Below, piece by piece: positions 586 through 35,680 of a DNA stretch of 58,260 nucleotides. Under the pieces are notes generated by a model. The model saw only the letters and a program-made list of their open reading frames with translations. It was not told the DNA's origin and ran no database searches. Origin of the DNA: Psammoneis japonica (Eukaryota); assembly GCA_008632985.1 (NCBI GenBank), contig QPGO01000314.1, positions 1 to 58,260 on the forward strand, written 5' to 3'. The translations under genes and the position numbers were made by a program. Numbering within the stretch: the stretch's first letter is position 1; every line of letters starts with the position of its first letter.

Positions 586-1702
586 TTGATGCTGCCAGTG
601 CTTCTTGCACACTTGCAGATGAAAAGAATGCCAAAGAAGCTGGCAAAAGGAGGACTCCAAAACCCTCATTGACTGGCGGTTTTGCAGCCACAAATTGATG
701 AGAGATGGTCCACTGTGGTTGCATGTGAGCAAGTGGGGACAATGCCAGCATTGTTGTGCCACCATTTCTGGCATGGGAGTGGTGCAATCTGAGCCTGTGT
801 CTCCTCTGCCAGGACAGTGGCAGATGGATGGCAGTGCAGGAGATGTGTGAAAACAAGTGGCTGTGTTTGGTTGAGAAAATGAGCACCTTTGAAATGAAGC
901 TCTCTGCAAGAGCAAGCTGAGCTTTCTTTTGAAATCATGAGAAAGCAGGGCAGTCATTGATGCTGCCAGTGCTTCTTGCACACTTGCAGATGAAAAGAAT
1001 GCCAAAGAAGCTGGCACAAGGAGGACTCCAAAACCCTCATTGACTGGTGGTTTTGCAGCCACAAATTGATGAGAGATGGTCCACTGTGGTTGCATGTGAG
1101 CAAGTGGGGACAATGCCAGCATTGTTGTGCCACCATTTCTGGCATGGGAGTGGTGCAATCTGAGCCTGTGCCTCCTCTGCCAGGACAGTGGCAGATGGAT
1201 GGCAGTGCAGAAGATGTGTGAAAACAAGTGGCTGTGTTTGGTTGAGAAAATGAGCACCTTTGAAATGAAGCTCTCTGCAAGAGCAAGCTGAGCTTTCTTT
1301 TGAAATCATGAGAAAGCAGGGCAGTCATTGATGCTGCCAGTGCTTCTTGCACACTTGCAGATGAAAAGAATGCCAAAGAAGCTGGCAAAAGGAGGACTCC
1401 AAAACCCTCATTGACTGGTGGTTTTGCAGCCACAAATTGATGAGAGATGGTCCACTGTGGTTGCATGTGAGCAAGTGGGGACAATGCCAGCATTGTTGTG
1501 CCACCATTTCTGGCATGGGAGTGGTGCAATCTGAGCCTGTGCCTCCTCTGCCAGGACAGTGGCAGATGGATGGCAGTGCAGAAGATGTGTGAAAACAAGT
1601 GGCTGTGTTTGGTTGAGAAAATGAGCACCTTTGAAATGAAGCTCTCTGCAAGAGCAAGCTGAGCTTTCTTTTGAAATCATGAGAAAGCAGGGCAGTCATT
1701 GA
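586..1702. repeat. Tandem repeat, 3 x 371 bp, near-identical
   Basis: Units start at 586, 957 and 1328 (TTGATGCTGCCAGTG...), and the ORF track repeats with 371-bp offsets. Copies differ by a handful of substitutions; TTGA microhomology is present at the junctions. Confidence 0.97.
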
Positions 1703-11471: not shown

Positions 11472-12582
11472 GCCCCCAAAAAGAGCTGCTGCACATCATC
11501 GCAATCAACACATTTTTGTTCTCCTCCCCTGAGCCCCATCAGGTGTTCATCCTCTCAAAAATTACCCTCGTCACCCGGGTTGTCCGCAAAAGGGCAAGGC
11601 AACTCCCCCCTGCCCTCGCCATTTTGGGAAACCCCAAATGGGCAAAACCAAGCTGAGCCCCCGCAACCAGCAGGTCAAGCTGTGGTGTCTCAGTGCTCTG
11701 TTTTGTTGCTGACCAATGGAGGTGTGTTGTTGGATTTGGGGCAAGGTGAGTGTGTGAAAATGGTGACTTTTGGCGATTTCATCAAATGACAGATTGAAGC
11801 AATCGAGATGGTCCGTCATGTCATGTCCGTCACCAGTCGGCCTGGTCAGTCTGCCCGTCATGCGTTGAGAGAAGCAGAACCGTTATTTGCAGTGATGCAC
11901 ACCATGACCGAAAATGCCCAGCCTTTCGTTTTCAGCCACAGGCCACAGGAAAAGGCAGCTCATTATTTCGACAGAACCTCATCAAGAGACACAATGTCCT
12001 GAATGGGTGAAAAACAAAAAGCCTCTGCTGCTGTAAATTGTGAACTTGGGGGCAGTGTTGTGCTTCCGAAAAATTGACTATGTACGACAAGAAAGAGCGA
12101 CTTGTGTCAGTGACCGTGTTCACGTAAATCATGCTTCAAAGCCCCCTGGGAAGTGTGCCATGGCATTCCACTGGTCGAATCTATGCATAAATTGACCTCT
12201 CAAACGGAGCTTCTCGGTGATGACCTTGTGTGTGGAGTGCATACGGTGTCGCGGATCTCTTCCTGCATAGCGAGCTACGGTAGTGTCGACATGCTCGTTT
12301 TGAAAAGTGCTTTTGCACTGGCTCTCTCTCTTCGACTGGATTGTTGTGCTGCAAGACACAAGAGCCAATCGCAAGAACTTTTTTCTCTCTGCGGAGAAAA
12401 CGACGCATTTTCCGTCGTTTGCGAACGCGAGTGTCATCACATGTACTGTACATACCACGTACCGCGTAGTTTCTACGCAGGCATGACTCGGGATCGCGAA
12501 ATAGTAAATGAGTTGTTCTCACTGTTCTCATACTTCTACACTGTACACAACATCAAAACCAGATTGATTGTCAACTGCCGTG

Positions 12583-14454
12583 ATGAATCATCGTAGAAAG
12601 AAATTGAAAAGATTGGAGAAACGTCTTGGTCGCCGTGGCAAGGAACGCCACGATGAAGGAGAAGGAGGCTTGTTGGAAGAACAGGCAACAGCAAGTTACG
12701 GTCTCGGCTCTATTATCAACGATATTCATGTTGACGAAGAGACTATGGAAGAGGAACAAAAGGTTGAAGAAACTGATGAAAGTAGTCCAGCATCTACCTT
12801 GACGGGTGCTCATGCAATGAGTCAACAAGGGGAGGTCCGTCGTGGTAGTGCACAAGCAGGTGGCGACGATGTTAGCCATGCCATTGTGTGTGACGTGGAG
12901 ACGGATCCCATGCCTCCTCCACAGCCAGTGCAGGGCAATGAAGCACTTCTTGTAGAAGCCCATTTAGTTGAACGGGCTGATAATGCAGAAGATGTGCGAG
13001 AACAAATGGCTACACTCGAGCAAGAAAACATGCGACTTCGAAATAAAGTTCCGCTAGTACAAGCCGAGGTCGCTCAAGAAAATACGAGAAGCAAGGGCCC
13101 TCGTCGCAAATGCTTGATTGTTATGGGTGTTACAGCACTTCTGATTACTGTGGCGGTTGTTGCTGGAGTTTCTGTCACTGGAGGCGGTGGCACGTTTCCG
13201 CCGATCCCCCCGCAGTCTCCAACATTGTCGCCCACTGTTCCACCCATGCAGTCTCCCACTAGACCCCCTATTACTGTCATTCCTGCTGATTGGATTCCCG
13301 CTGGTCAAATCTTGCATGGCAAAGCGGTGTGTGATTTTTTTGGCAGTTCTGTATCCTTGTCTCGTGATGGTCGTGTCATGGCTGTTGGCGCAACGCCGCA
13401 ATGTTCCAATCGCGGCTATGTTGGTGTCAATCGATACAATCCTGCCACCCATGAATGGATGCAAATTGGCCAAGAATTGATCGGACAAGCCGGCCTCGAC
13501 AATTTTGGAGAGTCTGTTTCGTTAAATGGCGACGGCACCATTCTTGCGGTTGGAGCTCCATTGAATGACAGTGGCGGAACGACAGCCGGTCAAGTGCGAG
13601 CGTATGAATACAACTCTGTATCGGATCATTGGGTCCAACTCGGTAGCGATATCCTTGGACAAGACTCCGGTGATGAATTTGGCATTTCCGTGTCGCTGTC
13701 GGACGCGGGAGACATTCTTGCCGTGGGAGCACACAGGGATGATACGGAAAAAGGTGTAAAGTCTGGTTCGGTTCGATTGTTTCAATACGACCGCGGCACC
13801 TCATCCTGGAGCCAACTCGGACAAACGCTGATTGGCCAAGCCGCTTATGATCATTTTGGCTTTTCCGTCTCCTTAAATGCGCTGGGAACCATTGTTGGAG
13901 TTGGAACAATTGTATGGGCTTCGAGTGACGCTGGCCAAGTGTCGGTGTATGAATACAATTCTACATTGGCAAGATGGGATCTGTTGGGGGATCCAATCAA
14001 ACGCCAAGATGTTGATGATTGGTTGGGAGACTCCGTTTCTCTTGACGACAGCGGTGTGATCGTGGCCGCAGGTGTGCCTGGAAGCAACCCGAGGGTTTTG
14101 GTTTATTCGTACGACCGCTCGACTTTGACATGGAATCAACGTGGCCAAACTCTCTTTTCACAACACCCTGATGATCTTGTTGGTTTCTCGGTGTCGTTGA
14201 GTGGAAATGGAAATGTCTTGGGGGTCGGAAGTGGAATGCGGGGTCAAGTTCGAATCTTTCAGCATGACAGCAATGCAGATGAATGGAAGCAAGTTGGCGA
14301 TCCTTTAAATGGCGAGGCTGAGCATGATGAAGATTTTGGACATTCCGTGTCCTTGTCGGCCGACGGAAGCGTCGTTGGAGTTGGCGCGCCCATGACTGAT
14401 GTCAATGGCGACAGGTCCGGATCCGTGCATGCATTCACGGCAAATGACAATTAG
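12583..14454 (+). CDS. Single-pass membrane protein with FG-GAP-like beta-propeller repeats (paralog 1)
   Basis: Intact ORF; ATG at 12583 matches the start of paralog 2. Acidic N-terminus, short coiled coil, one TM helix (LIVMGVTALLITVAVVAGVSV), Pro-rich linker, seven FGxSVSLSxDGxxLAVGA-type repeats. Confidence 0.88.
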   Translation: MNHRRKKLKRLEKRLGRRGKERHDEGEGGLLEEQATASYGLGSIINDIHVDEETMEEEQKVEETDESSPASTLTGAHAMSQQGEVRRGSAQAGGDDVSHAIVCDVETDPMPPPQPVQGNEALLVEAHLVERADNAEDVREQMATLEQENMRLRNKVPLVQAEVAQENTRSKGPRRKCLIVMGVTALLITVAVVAGVSVTGGGGTFPPIPPQSPTLSPTVPPMQSPTRPPITVIPADWIPAGQILHGKAVCDFFGSSVSLSRDGRVMAVGATPQCSNRGYVGVNRYNPATHEWMQIGQELIGQAGLDNFGESVSLNGDGTILAVGAPLNDSGGTTAGQVRAYEYNSVSDHWVQLGSDILGQDSGDEFGISVSLSDAGDILAVGAHRDDTEKGVKSGSVRLFQYDRGTSSWSQLGQTLIGQAAYDHFGFSVSLNALGTIVGVGTIVWASSDAGQVSVYEYNSTLARWDLLGDPIKRQDVDDWLGDSVSLDDSGVIVAAGVPGSNPRVLVYSYDRSTLTWNQRGQTLFSQHPDDLVGFSVSLSGNGNVLGVGSGMRGQVRIFQHDSNADEWKQVGDPLNGEAEHDEDFGHSVSLSADGSVVGVGAPMTDVNGDRSGSVHAFTANDN

Positions 14455-15263
14455 AAACAATGCATTTTGCATTTCATCCTTTTGCATGCATCAATCACTC
14501 TGTATTTTTTGTAGTTCATTTAGTTGCAGACTGTGCATCGCGTGCATTGTCAATTGTGTCAGAGCATTTTTCTCGCTTGTCGCTTGTCCAACCTGACGGA
14601 GTCTGTCTGTCTGTGCACTTTTTGAGACCTTCAATTCCAACCACGAACCATCGCAACTCTGTCGCTGAAACATCCAACACAACAAAACACAGCAACAGCA
14701 AATGAAAATGATTCCGGTGGAAAGAGTGTTGGTTGTGTGTGTTGAACCAGCAAGTCAGTGCCGCCAAAAGGGAATCCTGTGAGGCTTCCTGTGCTGCTCG
14801 TCGCACTTGCCTTGGTTTCTTGCAGTGGCTGTGGGTTGCCTGGAAGTTGTTGATGCAAACTTCAAACTTGCAATGTGACAGGTGCCCAGTGTGGCCAAAT
14901 GCAAAAATTGTGTGAACCAAATGATTCACTTCAAAGAGTGAGATGAACTGAAAGGTGAGAGAGATCGACAACGACAAGATGCTGATTGCAAGGAGTCGCG
15001 CCAATTTGATCGTGATGAGTCACCAAATCTGCCACATCAGGATTCACAGCATCTTTTCTTCAACTCATCTGGATTTCTTGTGTTTCCTGTGATCTGAGTG
15101 TTTGAACACACTCCTGCTGCTTGTGTTGATGTTCTGCTGACCAGACAGGTCCGGCTTGTCTTGAGGAGGGGAGATGGTGCTCCCTCTGTCTCACATCATT
15201 GCTGACATCTTTCAAATCGGCAATTCGCAAGCTGGAGCACTGTCCATTGTCAGAGCCATCAAT

Positions 15264-16420
15264 TGTCACAGAGACTCCAATGTGTCACAGGAGTGACCTC
15301 ACAAACTGACACCCCCACACACTGGGAGCATCAAAAGCCTGGCAAAACAGGTTTGAAGATGTTCCAGTGCAAACAGGCAGTGGTGTGAGAGCAATGAAAA
15401 CAGACAGCACAGAGAAAAGAACCATCAAAACACAATGCAGCAAACCTCTGAAACTTCAAAACACTTCCACAATGATGGATCAAAGAGCAAAGCATTGAGA
15501 TGCAAGGCAGGTGTCCGGGGTGGTGGCACAATGTCAAACCAGGAGGCCTGCCAGGATGGCAACAGGAGCGGCAATCAGGGGGGCAACCAGAACTGGCCCA
15601 ACTCAACTGGCAATTGGGAGGCCGGTTGGGACAACTCCAATCCATTAAAACATCTTTGCAGAGGATCTCATCTGGCTCACACAAATCTCACATTGGAGCA
15701 GCACCCCCCTGCAATGGGTGTGGCGTGTGACATTGGCAAAGAGCATGAGCAAGATGCAACAACAGAATCCTGGATCAAGGACTCACTTGCTCTGTCAAAC
15801 TCTTGCAAACCAAGCATGAAAACAAGATGACATTTGACCACAGCACCTCAATGCAAGTGCCACTGACACATGGGGCAATTGTCCGTGGTGTTCACACGTG
15901 TTGAGTCTCATGTGCATAGAAACAGTGTCACACACCACGCGATCTTTGGAAGATGAGGATGAAAAAGGTGCCAGTTGTTGCTGCAATGCATTTGATGCCA
16001 TTGCAGCAACCAAGCACACCAGCTCACATTAGAAACACTCAAGTGTGGCATTGGAAAACACGTGACAGTGGTGGCATTGCAAGACATCTGTCACTGCACA
16101 TGGCAAAGTGATCTGAAAGATGACTTGCCAGCACTGTGTCATCTGCAGGTGGAAACAGCACCACGTCCTGCACAGTCTTTGGTTCATGAAACAAAAACAA
16201 ATGTGCAAGAAGTGTGCAACAATTTTGAGGCCATTGCAATCAACAGAGCACCCAAGTTCACATTGAAAATGCTCAGGGGTGGCATTGAAATGCTTTTGCA
16301 AAAGAGGCTTGGTTGCGTGGGAAGGTTTCAGAGGTGCCATGTGTCAGCAGAGGTCAACGTGGGCTCACAACCTGGATGGTGGAGACTCCAATGCATCACC
16401 GGAGTGACCTCTTGCACAGA
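15264..16420 (-). mobile_element. Probable Copia-type LTR element remnant (LTR end plus PBS)
   Basis: GAGACTCCAAT...GGAGTGACCTC occurs at 15271, at 16382 and split at 44670/50362. On the minus strand at 16361-16374 it is followed by (CA)GGTTGTGAGCCC, resembling the Copia GGTTATG(G/A)GCCC PBS with TA->TG. 16185-16410 is homologous to 44077-44688. Confidence 0.5.
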
Positions 16421-17282
16421 CAAATTGTGTCGCCAAACATGTGTGATGCACCATGCACACATCCCACAGAACAGGCAAAGCAAGGTCTCTCTTTCTTGAC
16501 TTCTTCTTGCTGTCCTGATCTCATCAACCAGGTCCACAATCCAGCCATTGACTCTCTCAGGATTCAAATCAAACAACTCCACGCCATTGTGGAGCCACTT
16601 GTTCAACTGGTCTGCATGGTTGATGGTGTCATGGTGGAAGAATGATGCCAACTTCCTTGCATCACAAGTGATGCCATCTGTGTCCCTCATGAGCCCACAA
16701 TGACTCCCTGCAGTGTCCGGCAGACCGGGGCTTTCAATGAGCTTCACAAGGGGACAACACACCCCATCCTTGTCCATGCCACAGGCAGGAAAACAGATGT
16801 TCAACAACCTGGGTGAGATGTCAACATCACTCTTGTTGAGGGTCAATTGCAAATCATTGCCCATTAATCCAGTGGTGTGCTTTGCCATCATCAAGTTGTT
16901 TTTGAGACAACACAGCTCACCTTGCCTCCAGGCTTGGTGCCTCCCACAACATGACAACATTCCTTGGTCCTGTGTGCTCTGTCAGAACAACATTTGAACT
17001 CAGATGCTCTCCTTGGATCATCATGAATGGAGAAAATTGGTGCAGTGGTGGACACACACTTGAGTGCCTTGGAACTCCACAGTGGCAATTGCTTGAGCAC
17101 TCCATCAACTGGTGCCTGTTCTTCCATGGGTCTTGCCACAAACCCAAGGTTCTTGATCTGATTGGTGACAGAGAAATCAAGGTGCCAAATGATGAGTGCT
17201 CTAGACCACTTGCTGGCACACTCCTGATTGGTTTCCATCAGAGCAGTGCTTTTGTTGTGCTGACAGGGGTTGTTCTTGTTGG

Positions 17283-19990
17283 TTGGATGCCCCTGAACAT
17301 TTAACAGCCAACGACAGCCTTGCAGAGATCATCAGCTGTGTGAACAATGAGAAAGCCTTTGCAAACAAAGGCAGCAGCAAGAAGCAAGACAAGCAAAGGG
17401 AAAGCAATGCTCCTTCACCCCAATCTTCAAGACATTGTCATGGGAGTGGCAGCCAAGTGGATCCAGAGTCCAGGTGTCCGGCACACACCAATCATGACCA
17501 CAAGCGGAAGGGCTGTCAAGGTGGAGGCCAAAGCAATTGTCAAGGCAGAGGTTTGCAAGACCAAGGAGGTTGTGGCAACTTCCGAGGTCAAGGACGTGGT
17601 GTTTGTGGCAACCAAGGCAATTGTGGCAGCCAAGGTTGCGGCAACTGTCAAGGTCCCCAGAATTCTCAAGGTGGAGGATCCTGTTGTCAAAATCAAAATG
17701 GCGCACAAGCCAACCGTGACACCCAAGGCTGTAAAAATCTGGCTGGAGCAGCTCCTCCTGGTGACTGGCAAATGGAGTTGCACCATTTTGATTGAGAAGG
17801 GCCTCATGAGTTGTGAGGTGGAAATGGGTGCAACCAAGGTGGTTGTTTCCCTCCAGCCAGCAAGCATTGCATGTGTTGTTAGATTCAGGAGGCACTGACA
17901 CCCTTGTGCATTCTCATGTTTCACCCAAGGGAGCCAATCCAACTGTGAATGATGAGGGGTGGCTGAGTTTTCAGACAGCAGCTGGGCATTGTGAATCATC
18001 CCAATGTGCCATCATGAAGAATCTGGTGCCACCCGCATTTGACAAGTCCAAACAAGTTGATGGCATTGCTGCTCAAGCTTTTGACTCTCCGTGCAAACAT
18101 GATGTGAGACATTGAGCCAAGAAGGCTGTCTTTCCAAGGCCAGCACAACACTTGATTTTTGGTTTGGAGTCATGAAGTGGTTGGATGATTTGATCCCAAT
18201 GAAGCAACCCAATCATTGGAATCAAGTTCATGGCTGGTTGGATGTGCTGGACAACCACAAAGAGGATGAAGATGATGAGGACCTCCAGGGTCAAGCTTTC
18301 ATCATGCCAGATGTCAAGTGTGAGAGAAGGTGTCAACTGTGAAAGTGACACAATTGCAAACTCATTTGACCCAGGACCAACGTGACAAGCTTCACACCAT
18401 GCTTGAAAAGCACAAAACCCTCTTTGATGGGACGGTTGGCAAACATCTGCATGAAACCAATTTTTGGAAGTTGATCCTGGTGCCATTCCCTTTCACTCTA
18501 AAGCCCACAAAGCACCAAAGAGAGATGAGGCTGTTTTTAAGAAGGAACTGCACAACATCTTTGCAACGTTGGCACACTGGAATCAGCAGGACCAACAGAG
18601 TGGGTGGCCGGAACCTTCCCAACACCCAAAAAGGATGGACAAGTGGGATGTGTGTCCAACTTCCAAGAATTGAACAAGGTGCTCAAGTGGAAGGTGTCCT
18701 CCACACAATTTACACCAACAATTGGGGTGCAAGTTTTTAACCAAACTGGACCTCACCATGTTCTGCTGTCACATCGAGCTTGACAAAGAATCCAAGGATT
18801 TGCATGCTGTTGTTGCTCTGCTTGGAAAGTTCCAACATTGTCAACCAGCCATGGGTCTGAAAACTTCTCCCAACATTGCTCAAACTGTCATTGAGAAAGT
18901 GTCAAACAAACTTGATGTCAAAGCTTGTGTTGATGACATTGCTCAATTTGATGACTTGTTTGACACTCACATGCAGCACCGACTTGACAAGTTGCAGTCC
19001 AGACTGGAAGAGAATGACCTCAAGGTCAATCCACTCAAGTGTGAGTGGTGCGTCCAAGAGACGGATGTTCTGGGTCATTGGCTCACACCTGCAGGAGCTT
19101 GACCATGGAAGAAAAAGGTCAAAGCAGTTCTGCAGATGCAACCTCCTCAGAATGTGATGCAGCTGCAATCTTTCATTGGTGCAGCATCCTGTTGTCACAA
19201 CATGTGGCCTCATTGCTCTCATGCACTTGCTCCACTTACAAAGTCAACCAGCAAGAGCAAGTTGGAATGGACCCCAGAGTGTCAGAAAGCCTTTGAAGAC
19301 ATGAAAACATTGATGTTGGACAACACCCTTTGGGTCCACCCAAACCACAACAACTCCTCCAACTGTCAGATGGGTGCAGCGATCATGCAAGAAGGGAAGC
19401 CGGCAGCACATTGGTCTCAGAAGCTCAGTGCAGTGCAGCAAAATCACTCCACTGTTGAGAAAGAGCTCCTTGCTGTGGCAATGTGTTGCAAAGAATTCCG
19501 CACCATGTTGCTTGGGGCTGATTGTGCTGTTTTCACTGACCACAAAAACCTCACCTTTTGTGTGCTCAACTCTCAACAAATGCTCAGGTTGAGACTCTTT
19601 TTGGAGGACTTTGCTCTGACCTTCAAGCATGTTGACAGCAAGGATGACTCAATGGCAGATTGTTGTTCCCAATTGCCTTGCATTGAACCTCCAATGGAAG
19701 GAAATTGTGCTCCCAATCAGGGCAAATTGATGGATTTCAAGGCAATTGACACTGCCACACCACCTCATGAAGAGAAACTTGACAACCCAGATCACGTGTC
19801 TTGTTTTTCCTTTTGTTGTGAAGAACCATCTCATTTCCACTCCTCCTTTGTTGATGATCCTGATCTGTGTGAATCATTTTTGAACTGTCCCTCACTTGAC
19901 AAAATGCAAAATCCCACAACCATGCAGTCAATTTAAGAGCACCAATTTGTCGACATGGAATTGAGTGACATGCAACACAACAAAACACAA
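17283..19990 (+). mobile_element. Ty3/Gypsy retrotransposon relic (gag end, protease, RT, RNase H; integrase not seen)
   Basis: Protease LLDSG (~17880); RT KFLTKLDL...AMGLKTSPNIAQ...CVDDI...LKVNPLKCEW...LGHWLTP; RNase H QMGAAIMQEGKP...EKELLA...FTDHKNL...MADCCSQLP. Many stops and frameshifts. Confidence 0.9.
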
Positions 19991-20049
19991 AACCCAAATT
20001 CATTTTTTAAGGTGCTGCCACACTTCTGCTCTGCAACTCTGGCAAACAA

Positions 20050-23000
20050 GCTAACCCACACCCCCAGTGCACTTAACTGTGGCAGGGGAATGCAGCAATC
20101 AGCCAAGATCAGCCATCACCATCAGGGGATGCCACGCCAAAGCAACTTGCAACAGTGCAAGTGCCAAGCAAGGCCGGTCATTTTGCCTTGTGAATGCTTG
20201 ATTTAAACACAGGTCCAACAATTGCCAACCAATTGCAAAGATGGTGGGTGGAATGGGAAAGGTGTTCATCAACGGAGTCAAAAAGAGCTGCTCAATCTTT
20301 GGCCAAACGGTCATTTGAACAAGAGTGAGTGGCCTTGACCTCTGCCTCTGTGTCATGACATTGTGCCAATTTGCTGGTTTCTGAATCATGTGCGTGAGTT
20401 GATTCATTGTGTTGATCCCACAATGCCTGCTGTTGAGACCATGTGAAGTTGCCAATGGTTGCTGCTCAGTCAACTCTAGAGATGTCACAGTCCAAACTTT
20501 CAACCTTTTTCAAATGCATGAGGTGCACCCTGTTCCAGCAGGCAGAGAATCAGCCATTGAAAATGAGCCTCCAACCAATCTGTTCCTGTGCATGAAATTT
20601 TTCCAAAATGCTGTGGTGAAGCTTGTCAGCACAGACTGTGTCTTCAAGAAACCAAGCCTCTGATGCAGCAAGCAGAAAGTTGCACATGGGAGGAGAAGTG
20701 TGAATGTCATCACATTTCTTCTGTAAACCTTGAAGGAAGGCACAATGCCATGCTTCATTGTGGGGGCACCACAGGATGTGGTCTCCATCCTCCATTGGAT
20801 GCTGGCAGTGAATGCAACAATCAGGTCTGATGGGATTGCACCAGCGGGCAACAAATCCTGCACCAGTTTGATGGCACTCATTTTTTGAGTGATGTTTTGT
20901 GACACAAGTTTAGAGTGCACCGGCCCATCAATGAGTTGGAATGCTTCATCTGTCCAAGTGCACTTCTCTTTCATGTGTGCAAGAAGAACTGGAAATGAGG
21001 CTTTGCATTGAAGTGCCGGTTTGAACTTGGAGTGCACGGAAGCATTTTGAACAGTGAGGTTGACGGAGCAGTGTGGCACATGAGGAGCAACCGACACAGA
21101 CCCAGGACATTCCCCTTGATGTTGACCTGCAATGCGGTCAGCTCAAACACTCAACTGTGCTGGAAGATGCAAGGATTTGCAGGGAACATTGTCATCTTGA
21201 TGGCACTTGATCCAGTGAATCACAACCTGTGTGCATGATTGCTTGGAGTGGAGAGAGTCAACTGAGTGGAAAATTTCATTCAATGTGTCCCAATCTGCTG
21301 ACACAGTGTCAGCAGCATGAGATTGATGGCAGCAGTCATGTTGCACATTGGAGGGATTGTCTTCTGTGGAGATTGGGATGGAATGGAAGTTGCTCTTGCA
21401 TTGCAAACAACAGCGGAGTTGTTGCAGCATGGGTCCATTCCCTGTGACAATTTTGTCTGACAAAACTCCATCACTCTGAGAACAAACAGAAGAAAGGAGA
21501 GCATCCCATGTGCCTCTGCACAGCAAGATGATGGGCCACAGTCAAATGCTGGACCAGCACAATCGACTGGGATGTTTCTGTCAATCACAAGCATCCATCT
21601 GAAGGTGGCATTGAAGCCAAGAACAGACCTGTCACTTGCTGCTGATGTGTGGTGAAGCCCAAGAATCTCTGCCAGTTTGAAACTGAACATGTTGAGGGAG
21701 ACCTTCACAAACAAAGATGATTCACACAGAGGCAGGGACCATGGCCAGTCTTGAAAATCAGAGGGGACAGAAACCACAGGAGACAGATCAAACAGGGAAC
21801 CGATGCCTCAGATGCGCCATCAACTGTCTTCAATGGTGCCAACCATGACTGGTGATGCCAAGGGGGACAAATCAAGAACAGTCTCAAGAGGATCAATGAC
21901 AGGAGCAATGCCACGGGTTGCTGGGAAGATTTGAAAGCCTGCCAGAGATCTCATGTGTAAACATCCTTTGACTGGTTCATCGTGCACAGGAAATTTCATC
22001 CACATCTCTGCAGACAGGATGGCCAAGAGCCCAATGGGCTGCATGACTCTAGATCCTTTCCTCTGCTGACAACACTGCAAAACCGCTGCCACTGTTTCCA
22101 GGCATGTGAGGACAGAAGAGCTTGTTCCACCAGGTTCAACATGGATGAACTGCTTGAGATGGAGGGCTCACCCAAGAACATTTGACGATCCAAAAACTGG
22201 CCATCTGGCAAGGCCACACCAGAAACGATGAGGATGTTGAGGCAAAGGCAGCAGCAATTCACCCAGCGCATTTGTCAATGGGAGAACATTCCCAAGTCTA
22301 GAACCACGTCCATGATGTGTTGATTGTTGTTTCACTGGAGGGGAAGTGCACCTGAGTCATCCAAATCAAAACATGCATCCACTCTGGACAAAAACAATCA
22401 GAGAGACATGAACCATTTAGACTCAGAGTGAAGCAACTTGGGATGAACATCTTTCAGGAAGCCAACCCCCGTGCTGAGATGGAACTGGATCCATGAAACC
22501 CCAACATGAGGCAACATTGCGGGCTGGCCAATCCCACACCAGTTGGACAGAAGCTGCGCCACTTGACCAATGCCTTGTTCCACATCTGAGGACCAAAATC
22601 CACCACCACTGAGAATGCAACAAGGGCCAAAAAGGACGTCCTAATTGGCACTGCAATCATGCCTGCATTTGGCAAATGTTGTGCACACAGCTTTTTGTTG
22701 AATCTCGAGAAGCTCCTTTGGAGCAAAATGGGAATTTGGGAGAGCACACATCACACATGCTAAATGGCAAGCAAAATGGGGAGCACAAGCTTTGCTGCTG
22801 TCGAGGGAGCAAGATCAGAGAAAGAGAGCAATGTCATCACTCTTTTTCTCAAGGGCTTCACAGAGAGTTTTTTGTGAACCTGCTGGAGACTTGTGGTGCC
22901 CTGGGGTCATGCGGGACATGTGGGCAGATGACTGAACACTGGACCAGGAATGTGGTTGATTGGTGGAGGAAATGTCAATGATGATGGCATCATTGCATGC

Positions 23001-26000
23001 GCTGAGGTGTGGTTCTCCATCTTCCATGAAGTGCCATTCAATGACATTGTCTGAACATTTGGGTGGCTCCACCACAACTGGTTTTTTCCTCCTGCATTTT
23101 GAAAGCCAGGTCTGACACTGAAGGTTGAGGAGAGGTGCAGTGAAATTGTTGGCTTGCTTTGAGGTGTCGTCCACGCAACCCCGGTTGCACATCATCATGG
23201 AAACAGAATGGTTTGGGGACTCAAAGAAAATGCCATGGGCGTGTTGGTCAAATGTCTCTCAAAGAGGCTGTTGCAGATGTGATTCCAACAAAAAGGGAGA
23301 ATTGCCACTGCCCTGACCATTGCCACAAATGGGAGATTCAGCGGAGTGTGAGCATGACGATTGGGACAAACCGACTCCTGTTTTCAACCAGCAGTGTGCC
23401 TGTTGCAGAGTGCAATTTGCTGTCTGAGCAACTTCCTTTAGCATGCCATTGCTGCAACTCTCAAGAGCAGCTGGCACCAGAATGTTGCAATCACAGCAGG
23501 AGGTGCAGCAGTCATCACTGTGAACAGCCATTTTCTGGGAAACCCAACTGATTTCAAGCACAAGTTCTTCTGGGCACACTGGGGCATTCACATTCAAAAA
23601 GGAGTGAGTGCCACATGTCCCAGGGTTGCAGAGCTTCCATTGCTCCATGTTTTGTGCCAATGACTGCCACATGACACTTGAAATCAATTGAAAGTCGGCT
23701 TTGTAGATGTGGATGACATGCAAACGGCAAATCTTGGCATTTTCAGCCTTGTCAAAAATCACAACATTGACGATGTCTTTTCATCTGTTGCATGAGTGCC
23801 CCCAGTGTAGAGTGTAACTCAAAAGGTTCAACCTCATTTGAGTGAGTGTGCATTGAGTGGTGCCAAGGCACTCATGGTCTTCTGCAGGGTTGCCATCAGT
23901 GGTGGTGGCATTGGAGTGGGAGTGAGCAGTGCACATGGCTTTCCAATGGCCAACACAAATGCTTGAGGAGAACTGCAACAGATCTCTGTCCAATCTCTCA
24001 GCCAGTTCATGATTTGGGGCATCAAGTTGTAAAAGTGCATTTGTTCTTGACAGGAGATCTTGGCTTAGAAGCATGGGGGGCAATGGCATCAAGGCAGGTG
24101 GTCACCTGTGGTTCAGAGGATGAGACCATGTTGCGATGACTGGCCTTTGGCAGGTTGATGGTGGGATTGCCAAAAAGTGCCACAGCGTCAAAGTCAACAC
24201 AGTGAGCATGATGATCTGAAGCAATTTGACAGCCAAAAGCCTCACAGCCTCCAAATTGAGCTGCAGCCAAAGCACCTGGAGTTGCAAGCACACAATCTAA
24301 TCTCTTGGAACCTGGTGTGTGCACAGAAAATTCTGTGTCTCCCACAAGCTGGAGAGTGGGACATCTGATGAGTTGAATCTCTGTGCAAGGTTGGCAAGAT
24401 TCTCTGTGTTGACCATGAAGTCAGTGCTCAAGTTGCCAAAGATGACAACTTCTCTGTTCTGATCTGCTGGGAACTCCTGGAGCAAGCAACACAAGTCTAA
24501 ACAGAAAGCTTTGTGCGGGTTGACCGCACTGTTTCCTTGTTGACATAGAAGCACAGCCTGCTGGGTGCTTGCAGTGGTCCTTCTGGGGGCATTTTGTGGC
24601 TGTTGGAGCACACGTGGCAGCACAAAACAAACATTGTGACCTGCAGTCCTTGCTTCCCATCAAAACCTTGGACAGACCAGTGACCCAAGGGGTCCAATTC
24701 CTGGCTGCAATGCTGTGCCGCAACGGAATTCCCCAACAGAAGTGCAGCACTGCCTGGCTTGCAAGGAGTGGCAAAGGCAGTGGAGCTGCAAGAGAAGGTG
24801 CTGCGGCTGTGATTCATGATGTTCTGAACAGCAGAACGGCGTGGTGACAGCATTTCACATTGGGTGGTGTCCAAACAGACCTCCGACATGCCAACCACAT
24901 CAGCTTGACTCTTGTTGGCAACCTGGCAGCTGCATTCAAGAACATCTCCACCTCTCTTGTCAAATTTGCACCCATTTGCATTGAAAGCACATGATCTTGT
25001 GCAGTGTGGAAGCTTCGGATTGAGGGCATCACCAGTTGGTTTGTTCTGTTAGAGGCAAGAGAAGTCAATGCAGTGGTCAGTGGGAAGGCTGCACCTGTTG
25101 CCATCTGGGAGTGACTGCCAAGCTTGTGAGGAAGGATCTTGACAACCTTCTCTGTTCATGGTTGGGCCGTGCTCCTCCCAGAAGAAGACTGAGGCTCACA
25201 TGACACAGGCAGAGATTGCAGCCCTGGCAGTCTTGAAGTTGACACCGTTGACAAGAATGTTGTGACAGCCATTGGCAAAACTAGAGGGAAAAATCTCTTG
25301 AACACTTTCAAAGCCTTGAACTGTTGATCAAAATAAAACATCATGTCCAGAGAGGTGCAAAGGAGTGGCACCACACAAGTGTTGTCATTGCGGTGGGCCT
25401 GGGATTTAACAGCATTGTAGAAGGAAAGGGGAGAAATGTGATGGGTCTTGGCCACAACAACATGGGTCGGAAGCTTGTTGGATGCACAAAGCAGGACTTT
25501 GCCGGCAGTGTGGCAGTCATTTTGTTGCACTTCAATTGCGAAGTTTTGGTGCAAAGAGGAGCGGCAATGTTCTTGTTGTCTGTGCAAACAGAAGTGGGAG
25601 CCAACCAGAACTTTGTTTTCTTGACCTTGAATTTGCCCAAATCACTGAGGAACATTTTGTTGGCTTCATCAATGGGAGTGTGTTTTGTCACTGCAGCAAT
25701 GCAATGAGCCAGGTGCACTGTGTTGAGCTTTCTTCATGGAGTTGCCAATGGCAGGAACATGTGCAGGACAACTCCCTGTTGCCATCATTGGCAACAATGC
25801 CGGGTGGAACTCATCAACGTTGTCCAAGGAAACCAGAGCTGCATCTGGAACATCCTTGGCCGCCATCCCCAAGGATGGAGAAGCGTTTTTGAGGTCTCTG
25901 CCAACAAGAGGAGGGATGACATCATCCTCCAAGAATGAGTCCACAGCACTGGCAGAAGGGCCATTAGAAACCTGATTCACATTGGTGGCTGTGGACAAAT

Positions 26001-27400
26001 CCACAATTTTTGCTGGCAGTGCAAGGTCAAAAAACACCAAATCAAAACCACAGGTTGGTTGCAAACATCAACAAACAAACAATCTAGCTTGTCAAATGAT
26101 GAAAACTTGGAAGACACACCAGTGGGGCCTTTGCCTTCAGCAAAGGAAAGAGCATCAGATTTTTTGACAAAATCAATCAACTCTTTGTGCTTTGCCTCCA
26201 GAAGGCTGTGCAAGTTAGCCACATGAGGCTTTTTGCATTTGGCGTGGGTGCGCAACTGAACCCACAAATCAAGAAGAAGGAACACACATGCTCCTCAGTC
26301 TTTGACTCAGGCAACTTCTTTGCCAAGACAGGAATGGCAGGAGGCTGACAAGGGTTGCTGGAGATGACGAGCATGCCTGGCTTCTTGCAGACTTCAATTT
26401 CATCTGCTGTTGGGTCAGGAGGCAACTCAGGCTTCTCAGCAGGAGATGCAGTTGGAGCAGGAAAATCCGGTGCATGCTCAGATGCCATTGAGGTGGCATC
26501 AGACTTCTCTGTGAGAGCTGGCAAAGTGCGCACTTGCTTCCAAAGGTTCCTGGAGGGCCATTGCCAATGTTGGTCTCCAAGTCTTGAATGGACTGGTTTG
26601 TCAGATGCTTGGAGATGTCAAGATCCCTGATGCTGACATCTTGCAAAGTGCAAACAGCTTCACAACATTGGGGGGTGCCGCCAAGCTGAGCATGTTTGTG
26701 GCAATTTCACAGGTGTTGCCATTGCTTGCAATCTGCTGCTTCCCAATCTCACCAAAAGCAACAGAGTGGCAGTGGGCAAGCTGCTGCCAGATGGTGTTGT
26801 CAAAGTTCTTGACAAGAGCGCTGAATGCAAACCTGAAGTTGCTCAAGGCTGCAATGACGTCTGACGAGTCCTGGACATGACCATGAGCATGCAAGACAGA
26901 TTTCTTGATTGACTCTGTGGTCATGGTTTTGAAGTCAGCACTGCTGCACTCCTGCCCTTCCTCAATGATCTTGGTTTGTTCCAAAGTGTCCATGAGCAGA
27001 GTGAGAAAGTCAAGCATGTTGATCTTGGATAAAAAGGTCATCACAGATGCATTTGGAGGTGCGTCCGCAAACTTGAAGCAGCAAATGCCATCAGCAAATG
27101 CCTTGTTGATGCAAGCAGGGCAAAGAGTGACTGCTTGATTGAAGACATTCATGGTCTTGATGCCATTGAGGGTGGTGGCAGCAATCTCATCAATGAGGCA
27201 AGCCTTCTTGGTCTCACTCAATTCTTGGAGGGCCTCAACAAAGACTTGCTTGAGCTGTCCCAGTGTGACAGCATCAGATCCCACTGCCTTGTGGCAAAAC
27301 ATGAAAGAAAAACAAGCCTGGATGTCAGCAGCTCTCTTCTTGAGGTCCTTGTCCATCTTGGATTGGGTGCCTTGACTTGGACAGTGATGGGAGCTTGTGC
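20050..27400 (-). mobile_element. Non-LTR retrotransposon (LINE; APE-RT-RNase H-Zn knuckle, Ambal-like) relic with putative ORF1 upstream
   Basis: APE motifs (SEVCLDT, CKPGS, DPLGHWS, GSKRLDC, SDHH) at 24100-24900. RT motifs (KICRLHVIHIYKAD, PICGNGQGSGNSP, GCVDDT) at 23100-23760. RNase H (SSCCAEAHG, HWIKCHQDD) at 21180-21650. EDGDHILWC at ~20780. Ends and ORF1 (25150-27400) are approximate. Confidence 0.85.
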
Positions 27401-28620
27401 GGCAGTGCCAGGAGCTTGAGCAGCATTTGTGGGATGGAGCAACGTGAAGCAGGTCAAAATTTTTGACAAACGGAAAGAAATGGAGGGAAAATGAGGCTCT
27501 GTCCTAAGAGATTTGAAATCTCTGAAAGTTGTGGTTGTGATTTTTGCACAAAAAGCATGGGGTGTGCAGATGATCTGCTGGTTGCATCAGGAATCAAACA
27601 TTTGTGGGAACTCCCGGATCCAAGAGATGTGTCTGGAGATGTGCACAAATCAGCATCAGAGTTCATTGTGGATTTTTGGTGGTGGTTTTTGAGAGAATGT
27701 CATCTCTCAAACAATTGAAGATGGAACATCATGTTTGGAACATGACACAGCATGAAGTTTTTTCATGTGAAACTGTTGCAATGGTCAGAGTGTGCTCACA
27801 TGCATGGATGCACAGAGGGCAGACATGAGATCTGAAAACTGCAATGGCAGAGAAAAAAGAGAAAAAGGTCCGGCGCACAGGGATTTGTGGAGCAACCTGA
27901 CAGTTGCAGAACAATGAACCCAGACAGTGTCAGGCCATTTTCATGATGTGCTCACGCTCTGATGTTGAGATCAGACAAAACGAGGTGGATTGCATGCAAT
28001 CTGGATCAACTGGTTTGCGGAGATCATCCGAGTTCAGCATGATCAGAGAGGGCGTTTGCAGTGGCAAGAGCATCCCAGCCTGCCAAAACAAAATGCCAAA
28101 CTGCACTGTTTGCATTCTGACAGAACGAATCAGAAAAATGGCAAGAGCGGCGCAGGCAATCGCCTTGGCTTGCAGAGCACATGTCTGGATCCAAGAACGA
28201 TGGCTGATTCATCATGGTTTTGCAGGCTGATCAGGACAATCAAGCCAATCCATGGGTCAACTGGCGCCATGTGCAGCTTGTGGGCGATTGTGCAAGGCAT
28301 GCCAGCATGCAGAAACAACGCTTTCAGCATTGTCAGGTCGACGCAACTGATCCCATCACCGGTGATCCACCAAACACAATGAGGGGAACTGGGGCGGCCT
28401 CTCATCATTGTCCATCTGTCTGTCTGCCTTTTGCTGCACGCTGCTCTCGCGCAGTGAAAACTCCAAGAGCGCGGCTGCCCACAAGGTGTTTTCTCCTTGT
28501 GGTGAGCCTGCTGTCTTGGCTCCAATGTCCCTGCTCATGCACAGAAACGCGCAGCAAGGTCCTGAGCATTTTCGATGGCACAGAACCTTGCCACGGGTTT
28601 CTGTGCCCATTTGCGACAAA

Positions 28621-29260
28621 GCTGCGTAGATTTGCAATGAAACAAATCTGAGCACTGTGTGTCTGCGGCAGGATCTGCGTGAAAACAAATCGAAACGTGT
28701 CCACCGAGCCGGCAGTCATGTGCCGGCCGTCGTGAAAAGCATTTCATGTCTGAGAAAGAGTTCGTCAGGGCCGGCGAACAACACACCTCTACGATGCGAT
28801 TGGTGCAAAATCTACGTAAATGCACAGAAACCAGCATGTGGCTTCTGTGCAAATTAGAGCTCGTGAAAAACAAGCAGGGACATTCGACCTTCGGGCACGT
28901 GAATCGCGCAATTGTTTTCGCAATTCGTAGACTAGTGCCACATCCCTGCTTGTGCACACGAACCACCTGGTGGTTCGTGTGCACCCTACGCAAAATGCTG
29001 CGTAGATTTGTACCGAATTAAATCTGAGTGCCTACATCTGCAGTAGGATCTACGTGAAAACGCACTCGAAACAGTGTCCACCGAGCCGGCAGTCATGTGC
29101 CGGACGTCGTGAAAAGTATTTTATGTCTGAGAAAGAGTTCGTCAGGGCCGGCGAACAACACCCCTCTACGATGCGACTGGTATAAAATGTACGTAAATGC
29201 ACAGGAACCAGCATGTGGTTCGTGTGCAAATTAGAGCTCGTGAAAAATAAGCAGGGATAT
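28621..29260. repeat. Direct duplication, period ~376 bp (aligned segments 28621-28883 and 28997-29260), upstream of FG-GAP paralog 2
   Basis: Both copies start GCTGCGTAGATTTG and share CCACCGAGCCGGCAGTCATGTGCCGG...GAGAAAGAGTTCGTCAGGGCCGGCGAACAACAC...AAATTAGAGCTCGTGAAAAA. Confidence 0.92.
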
Positions 29261-29380
29261 CTCTACCGGCATCTCATTGCATTGTGGTGAAATCGGGTTC
29301 GCGTATCGCATCTTTATCTCGTTTCTCGTTCGTCGTTCGTGCCGAAAAAAAAAACGTAAGATGACTTTTTATCAATCACC

Positions 29381-31231
29381 ATGATGAATCGTCGCAACAA
29401 GGCCTTCAAAGCACCAGAGAATAGTTTTGGCCGTGGCAGCAAGGGAGGCCACGAAGAAACAGAAGAAGTGCAAGAGGACTTGGAACAAATCCAAGAAGAG
29501 CAAGAACAAGAACAAGCACGATCGAATGTTGCTTTTGCCGCTTACAGCACTTCTCATGTGGTCGAGGAGAATCAAGAAGAAGCTGAAGAAACAACTCCGG
29601 CATCTGCCTTGGCCGGTGCTTTTGCAGTGAGTCAACAAGGGATGGTTCGTCGTGATCGTGGACGAGCAAGCCGCGATAACACTGGCATCAGCGTTTTGTC
29701 TGACTTTGGGACAGTACAATCTGAACCCATGATGCCGCCTCCACCGCCTGCACAAGACGATGACACACTTCTTGTAGAAGCCCATTTAGCTGAGCCGGAT
29801 GACAATGTAGAAGATGTGCGAGAACAAATGGCTACACTAGAACAAGAAAATATGCGTCTTCGAAATGAAGTTCCGCTGGCACAAGCTGAGCCTTCTCAAG
29901 AACGTGCGAGCAACAAGGTCCGTCGTCGCAAATGCTTTGTTGTTCTGGGAGTTGCAGCACTTCTGATCACTGTGGCGGTTGTAGTTGGAGTTGCTGTCAC
30001 TGGAGGTGGTGGCGCTTTTCCGCCGTCAACGCTTGCGCCTGCTAATTGGAATCCAGTTGGTCAAGTCATGCACAATGGAAAAGTTTCAAGTCATAATTTT
30101 GGGAGCTCCATCTCCTTGTCCCGTGATGGCAGTATCATGGCGATCGGAGCAGGTAGCCTTGTCTCTTCCGGCTATGTTATTGTGCAACAATACAGTCCAA
30201 GCACCCAACAATGGATGCAAATTGGCCAAGAATTGATTCTACAAGCCGGCGGTGACAATTTTGGCAATTCCGTTTCATTAAATGGTGATGGAACGATTCT
30301 TGCTGTTGGAGCTCCGTGGAATGACAGTGGCGGAACGACAGCCGGTCAAGTGCGAGTGTATGAATACAACTCTGTATCGGATCATTGGGTCCAACTCGGT
30401 AGCGATATCCTTGGACAAGACTCCGGTGATGAATTTGGTATTTCCGTGTCGCTCTCGGACGCGGGAGACATTCTTGCCGTGGGAGCGTCGGCTGATGAGA
30501 CGGTAAATGGTAAACGGTCTGGTTCGGTTCGATTGTTTCAATACGACCGTGACTCCTCATCCTGGAACCAACTCGGACAAACACTCATTGGACAAGCTAC
30601 TGCTGATTATTTCGGCATTTCCGTTTCCTTGAATGCGCAGGGAACCATTGTCTGTGTTGGAGCGTATTTTAATGATTCAGGTTCAAATGCTGCTGGTCAA
30701 GTGTCGTCATATGAATACAATTCTGCCTGGTCAAGATGGGACATGTTGGGCGGCCCAATCAATGGACAAGTCGTAAATGCCAAGTTTGGATATTCTGTTT
30801 CTCTTGACGACAGCGGTTTGATCGTGGCCGCGGGTGCACCTGAAAATGACGAGAGGGTTTTGGTTTATACGTATGACCGTTTGACTTTGACATGGAATCA
30901 ACGTGGCCAAACTCTTTTGACGCAACAGCCCCACAATGGTTTTGGATGGTCAGTGTCGTTGAGTGGCAATGGAAAAGTGTTGGCTGTCGGTAGTTTGTAT
31001 CACAGCGTCAATGGATCGATCTATGGCCAAGTCCAAATCTTTCAATACAACAGCAACACCGCCATATGGAATCAGTTTGGTGATCCTTTAAATGGTGAGG
31101 CAGAAAATGATTATTTTGGATATTCCGTGTCCTTGTCGGCAGATGGAAGCGTCGTTGGAGTTGGTGCTTATGGAGCTGATGACGATGGCGAATCTTCTGG
31201 AACCGTGTATGTATTTACATCGAACAATTAG
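29381..31231 (+). CDS. Single-pass membrane protein with FG-GAP-like beta-propeller repeats (paralog 2)
   Basis: Intact 616-aa ORF collinear with paralog 1: AGAFAV and LVEAHL motifs, TM helix, seven FGxSVSL repeats, normal Tyr content. Confidence 0.9.
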   Translation: MMNRRNKAFKAPENSFGRGSKGGHEETEEVQEDLEQIQEEQEQEQARSNVAFAAYSTSHVVEENQEEAEETTPASALAGAFAVSQQGMVRRDRGRASRDNTGISVLSDFGTVQSEPMMPPPPPAQDDDTLLVEAHLAEPDDNVEDVREQMATLEQENMRLRNEVPLAQAEPSQERASNKVRRRKCFVVLGVAALLITVAVVVGVAVTGGGGAFPPSTLAPANWNPVGQVMHNGKVSSHNFGSSISLSRDGSIMAIGAGSLVSSGYVIVQQYSPSTQQWMQIGQELILQAGGDNFGNSVSLNGDGTILAVGAPWNDSGGTTAGQVRVYEYNSVSDHWVQLGSDILGQDSGDEFGISVSLSDAGDILAVGASADETVNGKRSGSVRLFQYDRDSSSWNQLGQTLIGQATADYFGISVSLNAQGTIVCVGAYFNDSGSNAAGQVSSYEYNSAWSRWDMLGGPINGQVVNAKFGYSVSLDDSGLIVAAGAPENDERVLVYTYDRLTLTWNQRGQTLLTQQPHNGFGWSVSLSGNGKVLAVGSLYHSVNGSIYGQVQIFQYNSNTAIWNQFGDPLNGEAENDYFGYSVSLSADGSVVGVGAYGADDDGESSGTVYVFTSNN

Positions 31232-31289
31232 ATTTGTATTTGCATTTCATGATTTTGTCTCTTCCGTTGATTATGTTTGTTGAAAAATC

Positions 31290-31646: not shown

Positions 31647-31727
31647 CTAGCGCCCGATGCATGCAATCACATTGAGAAAATAACAACACTTCCACATATA
31701 CTCTAAAATAACAACTACTACTGTTCT

Positions 31728-35500: not shown

Positions 35501-35680
35501 TAGGTATGGTGCTATGTTGCTCTCTTTTGATGTTCTACAAGCATGACAATGATGCGTCGGTCGTCTTGAGTAAGAAGGATCACTTTTTACTCAATCGAAG
35601 TTTTATTCTTCATGACTGCCAAAAACTGCCATTCTACAAACTGAAGGGGCAACATCATGAAACACATATATTACGCATCG

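Follow-up and report, generated by a model that had tools for sequence, protein, structure and literature searches.

Hypermutation restricted to the dinucleotide TpA has one published case, a preprint on the rhizarian Bigelowiella natans, in which viral inserts (giant virus and virophage) undergo A-to-G and T-to-C changes at TpA only, at about 1,000 times the background (Mettrop et al., bioRxiv 10.64898/2026.01.13.699255). The changes were measured de novo and were on in only some lines; adenine deamination was proposed, with ADAT2 as the candidate, and a word search of the main text found neither flanking context nor diatoms mentioned. A wider literature search, with most subscription papers outside its coverage, returned no paper on TpA hypermutation in diatoms or on its flanks. 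The present analysis concerns a 58,260-nucleotide stretch of DNA from the diatom Psammoneis japonica (the window; contig C315 of the 91.4-Mb assembly under study), in which a 13,371-bp block of nested, decayed repeats at positions 14530 to 27900 has been stripped of TpA, with 46 steps left. A preliminary description had proposed that these survivors reveal the preference of an enzyme-like mutator. Sites of this kind were found to be the resistant contexts of a process that turns TpA into TpG or CpA, and a flanking motif of that process is described; the protection of TpA by a CpG that touches it is new here.

The likeness to Bigelowiella lies in transitions at TpA only, on both strands of foreign DNA, leaving clusters poor in TpA and rich in CpA and TpG. 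Host DNA is likewise spared. Between 15 and 28 kb, the observed/expected ratio (o/e) was 0.02 to 0.10 for TA and 0.13 to 0.21 for CG, with CA and TG reaching 1.6 to 2.0 and AT at about 0.9 in the block, against about 0.3 to 0.8 for TA and near 1 for CG in host stretches of the window; the edges leak into host DNA. Depletion in Bigelowiella is partial and concerns viral inserts; here, erasure is nearly complete, affects long terminal repeat (LTR) and probable non-LTR retrotransposons, and was deduced by comparing copies.

Repeat-induced point mutation (RIP) changes C to T, mostly at CpA, and creates TpA. In RIP and in the process described here alike, the transitions are specific to a dinucleotide, strike both strands of repeats after their insertion, spread beyond the repeat into its flanks, and are coupled, in the present case probably, to cytosine methylation. 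The difference is that TpA is here destroyed and CpA and TpG are made, and C-to-T change at CpA amounted to 0.9 to 2.7 per 1,000. With regard to duplication as a trigger, paralogous FG-GAP genes in the window are largely spared, as is a near-intact copy of a multicopy Gypsy family, and duplicated methylase genes are erased.

Surviving TpA sites in the block

Alongside the 46 TpA, the block holds 3,001 CpA plus TpG steps and 141 CpG. The survivors comprise 32 YTAR, 12 RTAR, 2 YTAY, and no RTAY (R, purine; Y, pyrimidine), with a purine 3' of the A in 44 of 46. These counts agree with the preliminary description, which had reported mostly YTAR, some RTAR and YTAY, and essentially no RTAY; every example that it quoted was recovered at 0 to 2 bases from the place given (TpA at 17202, 20477, 22050, and 22299; at 16030, 17880, 20911, 22418, 24066, 25050, and 25965; and at 17302, 18538, 18738, 19934, 20204, and 25407). 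The CpA and TpG contexts of the block would predict 11.7 YTAR, 13.1 RTAR, 10.7 YTAY, and 10.5 RTAY (chi2 = 52.9, P = 1.9e-11; probability of zero RTAY, 6.5e-6), and the skew was stronger still against host TpA or the intact Gypsy copy, confirming unequal depletion of the classes. Since YTAR is the rarest class in host DNA of the window (75/627 in 16,260 bp of TA-rich, hand-picked sequence), the block reverses the background.

The imbalance between RTAR and YTAY survivors is a matter of element orientation and not of the mutator. It ran 10:0 in the minus-strand part of the block and 1:2 in the plus-strand Gypsy remnant, and in coding strands TAY is common and TAR scarce (94 YTAY and 43 RTAR in the intact Gypsy copy). 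With more of the block on the minus strand than on the plus strand, RTAR comes out in excess.

The survivors share wider context as well. Counting from the A, 40/46 had either T at -3 (TNTA) or A at +2 (TANA), compared with 1,311/3,001 CpA and TpG steps (P = 3e-9). In the 41 survivors alignable to relatives, which are only 64 to 89% alike and in many cases themselves saturated, 23 were TpA in at least one relative, against 289 of 2,344 CpA and TpG sites (odds ratio [OR], 9.1; P = 5e-11). The remaining 18 had no TpA in any relative, some showing a single state in 23/23 (17732 and 19934), and may be new TpA or subfamily differences. They likewise sit in resistant contexts, as expected for new TpA if the mutator stayed active.

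These 18 sites could be taken to mean that no preference exists, with the survivors being new TpA formed by ultraviolet (UV)-type C-to-T change (YCA to YTA, TGR to TAR) or reflecting stop-codon or codon composition or selection. The UV-type route would also yield YTAR > RTAR/YTAY > RTAY, part of the survivors may indeed be secondary, and orientation already accounts for the 12:2 ratio of RTAR to YTAY. The enrichment of ancestral TpA among survivors speaks against it, as do the lack of a significant effect of codon phase on TpA survival (0.21, 0.12, and 0.11; P = 0.21) and the ancestral class sizes, YTAR being the rarest in the intact Gypsy copy (40/255). The survival of known ancestral sites, described below, makes this alternative extremely improbable.

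TpA loss in young Gypsy and Copia copies

Two families of younger elements allowed the process to be followed site by site. The Gypsy family (5.39 kb) includes a near-intact copy, L021, with open reading frames (ORFs) of 420 and 1,164 codons, whose 255 TpA sites were compared with 18 other copies; one further copy, 78% alike (L038), was left out. The Copia family numbers 40 copies, among them a young copy in the window (2948 to 8564, minus strand), and 153 TpA sites were defined column by column.

The Gypsy sites gave 3,499 outcomes (1,504 TG, 1,218 CA, 725 TA, and 7 CG) and the Copia sites 6,015 (2,447 TG, 1,555 CA, 1,984 TA, and 4 CG). The double change to CG was therefore found in 11/9,514 outcomes over both families, and transversions were rare. 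TpA loss reached 75% in Gypsy and 67% in Copia, compared with CpG losses of 9% and 4%, and A-to-G change outside TpA was 2 to 4 per 1,000 (0.2 to 0.4%); the restriction to TpA is of the Bigelowiella type. TpA loss and CpG loss covaried across copies (rho = 0.60 and 0.62); CpG transitions ran at 13 to 31 per 1,000 and other C-to-T changes at about 1 to 5. The A-to-G changes outside TpA showed a weak bias toward a 3' pyrimidine (93/39,717 versus 57/39,987, P = 0.003; 59/13,132 versus 37/18,100, P = 2e-4), which is perhaps off-target activity or perhaps the ordinary spectrum.

Mean site survival in Gypsy was 0.125 for RTAY (78 sites), 0.30 for RTAR (43), 0.27 for YTAY (94), and 0.55 for YTAR (40), with sites as units (Kruskal-Wallis P = 4e-9), and the ranking was already visible on 14 shorter pieces. 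In Copia, the values were 0.24, 0.33, 0.30, and 0.63, respectively (YTAR versus RTAY, P = 4e-5). The ranking RTAY > RTAR ~ YTAY > YTAR put forward in the preliminary description thus holds in full for Gypsy; for Copia only its ends hold, as RTAY could not be told apart from RTAR (P = 0.21) or from YTAY (P = 0.29). Bias in survival at known ancestral TpA, together with Copia C-to-T rates that are not higher at YCA than at RCA (TCA 0.3, CCA 0.6, ACA 1.9, and GCA 1.0 per 1,000), refutes UV-type regeneration and codon or selection artefacts as the main cause.

The direction of change showed that the tetramer is not the real unit. The TG share was 0.69 at YTAY and 0.32 at RTAR in Gypsy (RTAR going to CA in 0.68; P = 2e-9), and the corresponding Copia shares were 0.72 and 0.38 (P = 3e-4), as predicted by a motif 5'-T[A]Y read on each strand separately. 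The enzyme-like tetramer preference of the preliminary description therefore survives as a ranking but resolves into two per-strand rates with a wider context. Both TG and CA outcomes were present among the 18 copies at 200/255 Gypsy sites, and pairwise agreement in direction was 0.52 to 0.78, indicating that the copies are largely independent, although a few pairs perhaps share history.

The intact copy itself (L021:2172-7559, on G000:C196) escaped almost wholly, its 18 relatives having lost 56 to 84% of its TpA; its gag and pol lie in one frame, parted by a single stop codon. A similar locus, L031 (G000:C57), was considered as a mutated allele of L021, the two sharing 99.8% identity across some 3.6 kb of flank and 94.5% in the interiors. 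This was rejected, as both junctions read N and the interior of L031 carries no fewer other differences than those of unrelated copies; L031 may be a haplotype duplicate, a segmental duplicate, or a result of gap filling.

Extended motif and protection by adjoining CpG

A competing-hazard model, cross-validated and bootstrapped by site, was fitted to 335 sites (188/196 interior Gypsy and 147/153 Copia sites), after removal of sites possibly private to the reference or with too few copies, Gypsy LTR ends, and the references L021 and L097. The fit improved out to -4 and +3, with near-equal weights when Gypsy and Copia were fitted apart. With CpG terms included, the weights at +1 were C 2.03, T 1.70, G 0.60, and A 0.48, a roughly threefold preference for pyrimidine; those at -2 were A 1.48, G 1.13, C 0.83, and T 0.73; and T at -3 (0.55) or A at +2 (0.51) halved the rate. 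Trained on other families, the model ranked the survivors of the block with an area under the curve of 0.87, where the R/Y classes reached 0.76, and it also ranked them within YTAR (P = 1e-4) and within RTAR (P = 3e-6). Two unrelated families of retrotransposons thus yielded the same motif, which also has predictive power in a third piece of DNA. Neither an A-tract term beyond the single positions (fold 0.71, z = -1.4) nor local GC content gave a significant gain.

About half of the 25 worst-predicted resistant sites adjoin a CpG. When terms for an abutting CpG were added, CGTA lowered the rate to 0.25-fold (z = -7.0) and TACG to 0.43-fold (z = -4.5), and this held in Gypsy and Copia separately; in the model, no effect was seen for a CpG at a distance of one or two bases from the TpA. 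The protection reappeared in unrelated TA-poor, CpG-rich DNA (26/61 versus 311/1,424; OR, 2.7; P = 4e-4) and in a second such set (10/19 versus 139/887; OR, 6.0; P = 3e-4). It was weak in old, CpG-poor tiles (OR, 1.9; P = 0.08) and absent from two host sets (OR, 1.17 and 0.79), and where the abutting CpG had itself decayed, 18/115 TpA survived, against 26 expected. A CpG that touches a TpA therefore protects it. RTAY sites made up 10/72 survivors in CpG-rich young stretches and none in the old block; the decay of most CpG in the block, and of this shield with it, may be the reason.

The position of the effect suggests a cause. A T at -3 of one strand pairs with an A at +2 of the opposite strand, and the C of 5'-CGTA occupies the place of that T. 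When this C was counted as a T, which takes no extra parameter, the cross-validated loss fell to 0.9194 from 0.9427 for the base model, close to the 0.9161 reached with two CpG terms; scoring the other C of the CpG as T made the fit worse (0.9519). That most of the gain is recovered in this way suggests hindrance by a 5-methyl group at the two adenines alike and, with it, a substrate in duplex form: a methyl at the C of 5'-CGTA may hinder attack on both strands. A model-free comparison agreed for one strand, with CGTA at 0.43 against 0.97 to 1.34 for RG at the same positions (P = 4e-10) and also below TG (P = 0.04). Several points weigh against a methyl cause. The reading was made post hoc, with nine models compared; the model-free effect on the TACG strand was small (1.33 versus 1.12 to 1.70 for other TACN); and CA at -3/-2 was also lowish (0.95 versus 1.25 to 1.56, P = 0.002), making an effect of the pyrimidine-purine step a possible substitute. 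In addition, the intact Gypsy copy already has a mild excess of CpG-abutting TpA (OR, 1.63; P = 0.09), and protection did not track CpG decay per site (rho = 0.02; 60 sites, low power).

Timing, strand symmetry, and regional spread

Paired LTRs of 13 elements showed 137 differences, of which 105 were of the TA type, and the partners were often unequal, one with 14 to 16 TpA and the other with 2 to 8. Erasure therefore followed insertion, which excludes an RNA or cDNA stage. Interiors were affected in all 18 Gypsy copies and ends were all or none, the state of an LTR tracking that of its flank (rho = 0.53, 31 ends, P = 0.002); the on/off lines of Bigelowiella offer an analogy only. In two elements (L024 and L030), identical intact LTRs enclose a heavily mutated interior, so that LTR dating would call both new. 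Dating of diatom transposons by LTR divergence, as well as their protein annotation, is distorted where the mutator acts.

At the block edges, TpA loss extends 0.5 to 1 kb past the CpG-poor zone. On the right, it continues for about 0.7 to 1 kb (27900 to 28900), and in the tandem pair 28618-28883 and 28994-29260 the inner copy has lost 11 TpA kept by the outer, with none lost in reverse. On the left, the 3' end of a host FG-GAP gene (14001 to 14529, plus strand) has intact CpG and low TA, and positions 13282 to 14484 have lost 13 TpA kept by the paralog at 30038 to 31257, against 2 in reverse.

No sense/antisense bias was detected (fold 1.07, z = 1.4), nor any effect of hairpins (fold 0.98; 78/670 strand-sites; unpaired fold 0.82). 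Strand-coordinated runs were absent beyond weak signals at 1 to 5 bp (z = 1.8 and 2.1) and 1 of 14 bins at z = 3.1; attacks spread over many generations could hide such clusters. Processive strand-coordinated attack and hairpin targeting were accordingly rejected, and editing of RNA or cDNA was rejected on strand symmetry and the differing LTR pairs. Taken together, the LTR, edge, and strand results indicate action on integrated chromosomal DNA, apparently region by region and one site at a time.

Proposed mechanism and alternatives

The reading that we favor, with moderate confidence, is that the survivors are the resistant tail of a TpA mutator, likely an adenine deaminase steered to silenced, CpG-methylated chromatin and acting on duplex DNA. 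The mutator converts TpA to TpG or CpA on either strand of integrated transposon DNA, at rates highest at 5'-T[A]Y and lowest with T at -3 or A at +1 or +2. The A would likely be deaminated to inosine and then copied as G; the steering to silenced, CpG-methylated chromatin and the duplex substrate are both probable, and the process may serve in defense. Each TpA would offer two adenines, RTAY presenting two good targets, RTAR and YTAY one, and YTAR none, which would give the ranking RTAY > RTAR/YTAY > YTAR. Once one A had changed, the step would no longer be TpA and the partner A would be safe. In diatoms, transposable elements form CG-methylated islands (PMC9998398).

Adenine deaminases of known preference fit in part. 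TadA-derived editors (ABE7.10 and ABE8e) prefer a preceding T and a following C, disfavor a following A, and act best on TAC (PMC8989541, PMC8065034); A-to-G change, T at -1, raised C at +1, and lowered A at +1 were all found here. These editors are engineered and work on displaced single strands, whereas TAT here is about as good as TAC, the context is wider, and there is no sign of single strands.

Certain findings tell against the deaminase reading. A-to-G and T-to-C change are not separable from sequence. TpA loss enters CpG-intact flanks, so that methylation at the site itself may not be needed, and the sequence model, before CpG terms, explains only 40% of the variance between sites. TadA editors split TA from GA only about 3- to 4-fold (PMC8065034), against more than 100-fold here. 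Furthermore, an exon-wise search with three Pfam families, which a divergent fold could escape, found no unusual or expanded deaminase in the genome.

Because the data are symmetric in this respect, the same mutator and motif could instead act through a thymine lesion (5'-R[T]A), either a G-pairing modification or adduct or the amination of T to 5-methylcytosine by a base-flipping enzyme, for example a RID-like relative of DNMT4 running RIP backward. The palindromic dinucleotide, the action on both strands, and the spread from repeats into flanks resemble RIP, and C5-methylases are represented in the genome by 27 matches, of which one is linked to a chromodomain. We know of no DNA enzyme that converts T to C. 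Adenine deamination is established chemistry, for which the 5' T and 3' C preference matches TadA editors. Diatom DNMT4 is related to RID and occurred in no non-diatom species of the database surveyed (PMC9998398), whereas TpA hypermutation is shared by a rhizarian. A thymine lesion is therefore judged unlikely.

Error-prone polymerase or repair activity in heterochromatin, inserting G opposite T at TpA in the manner of Pol eta or the A:T phase of somatic hypermutation, is quite unlikely. A-to-G at TA is the favored Pol eta error, and the covariation of TpA and CpG loss across copies fits such a source. The WA signature of Pol eta, however, raises A-to-G at AA as well as at TA, and here AA did not stand out from CA or GA (1.98, 1.90, and 1.80 per 1,000 in Copia; 3.06, 4.19, and 2.03 in Gypsy), for which reason Pol eta was rejected. 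Transversions at TpA were rare, strand-coordinated patches did not exceed the weak signals noted above, and TpA loss was no faster where CpG was dense nearby (fold 0.86, z = -2.0).

A TadA- or ADAT2-type deaminase acting on transiently single-stranded DNA (R-loops and forks) or on element RNA or cDNA would share the 5' T and +1 C preference of TadA editors. The ADAT2 exon of this genome carries an Asn that is usual in eukaryotic ADAT2 and hence not diagnostic. It is presumably the residue considered by Mettrop et al. in connection with DNA editing, its position having been matched by eye, and it lends this alternative some support. RNA and cDNA are excluded by strand symmetry and the unequal LTR pairs, and the coordinated clusters and hairpin or unpaired effects of a single-strand substrate were not seen. 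The fungal Tad2-Tad3 complex (with Ame1) shares the 5' U/T preference but acts on RNA and prefers UAG and hairpin loops (PMC11087585), whereas TAG is disfavored here and neither strand nor hairpin bias was found. Altogether, a single-strand deaminase is very unlikely.

Two further candidates were rejected: editing of the ADAR or UAG type, which has the 5' U/T preference in common but RNA as its substrate, by the weights at +1 (G 0.60 versus C 2.03) and the strand term of 1.07, and mutation linked to ApT or N6-methyladenine, since A-to-G at AAT, CAT, and GAT was 2 to 5 per 1,000 and TAC is as good as TAT. The preliminary description had expected the signature to identify the enzyme. It excludes ADAR/UAG editing, the Pol eta WA signature, ApT-linked mutation, and UV, and partly fits TadA, but it names no enzyme.

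More speculatively, and only as a tentative possibility, the mutator may be a natural double-stranded DNA adenine deaminase working as a reverse RIP: reading 5'-VRT[A]YS-3' in the duplex with a more than 100-fold preference for TpA over any other step, impeded when the base two positions 5' of the TpA bears a 5-methyl group (T or 5-methylcytosine), and sent to silenced transposon chromatin. If so, old transposon DNA would record both the footprint of the enzyme and past CpG methylation, and nature would have an adenine DNA editor of a type hitherto obtained by engineering alone, which Bigelowiella, within the same SAR group, may share. A natural deaminase of duplex DNA would represent a new chemistry of genome defense and a possible editing tool. 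No paper on ABE activity beside methylated CpG was found in the literature searched.

Candidate enzymes in the genome

Candidate enzymes can be scored against the signature (Y at +1, R at -2, not T at -3, not A at +2, and protection of CGTA). Deaminase matches numbered nine for PF00383, five for PF14437, and four for PF02137, corresponding to ordinary-looking dCMP deaminase, TadA-like, ADAT2, and RibD proteins, two small deaminases, and two editase-domain genes. The last two are L136 (G000:C40) and L137 (G000:C79); one is presumably ADAT1, leaving the second as a candidate. A further locus, L116:313-1785 (minus strand), joins deaminase and 2OG-Fe(II) dioxygenase domains in one open frame. Intact C5-methylase genes (L134, at G000:C34:42155-45664; L127; and L128), one with an upstream chromodomain ORF, are candidates that fit the description of diatom DNMT4. 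No evidence in the genome ties any of the deaminase or methylase genes found to TpA erasure.

Several copies of a C5 DNA-methyltransferase gene, L131 (G000:C301:34166-37723), L132, and L133 (G000:C297), lie in TpA-erased DNA. With a TA o/e of 0.07 to 0.10, ORFs almost free of tyrosine, and CpG largely kept, they are duplicated or mobile methylase genes attacked by the mutator.

Tyrosine content was also surveyed in protein relatives, although gene calling and clustering favor intact copies and the survey says little on distribution. No relative below 2.5% Tyr was present among the best 120 of the intact Gypsy pol. For the erased Copia pol (0.7% Tyr), one of the best 120, P0346, had 1.7%, the rest having at least 3.0% (median, 4.0%); this relative, from another source, perhaps reflects partial TpA erasure in another organism.

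Organization of the window

The block is composed of four parts. Positions 14530 to 17299 form a mosaic of dispersed repeat fragments of unassigned family, with 56 matches in its own genome in pieces of 0.1 to 0.5 kb and 5 surviving TpA. A decayed Ty3/Gypsy pol remnant follows on the plus strand (17300 to 19982), with Pfam matches to RNase H and about 73% identity to L021; it holds 9 surviving TpA, including both YTAY. The minus-strand element at 19983 to 25715 is probably a remnant of a LINE-type retrotransposon, a lead based on relatives with long ORFs of non-LTR look and Atlas feature matches of 0.85 to 0.89 to reverse transcriptase/endonuclease clusters; a Pfam search gave no match. The last part (25722 to 27900, minus strand) is a decayed repeat of unnamed family with a lightly mutated relative (L060/L111).

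The block is flanked by two of three FG-GAP repeat gene paralogs (12568-14454, 29360-31231, and 35639-37151), which are 72 to 77% identical and largely spared except at the edge adjoining it. A host Hook protein gene lies at 31731 to 33392; its named relatives, about 50% identical, come from diatoms, the majority of them pennate. The young Copia copy lies in the region at 3 to 8 kb in which TpA is depleted and CpG retained.

Contigs from a short-read run (X1), possibly the sample behind the assembly and not an independent strain, reproduced the block letter for letter, for example, with 0 differences over 20790 to 27609, so that the TpA pattern is not a consensus error. Short-read depth was 31 to 33 over 14936 to 27609, compared with 61 for a host contig at 31724 to 32726; a contig at 31221 to 31753 also showed 35. 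No second allele of the block at 90% likeness over 21 to 22 kb was found among the short-read contigs, and the block is perhaps hemizygous, unless its allele has diverged strongly. Near the left end of the window (586 to 1702), three tandem units of about 371 bp are 99% identical and contain no TA, the amplification having taken place after erasure.

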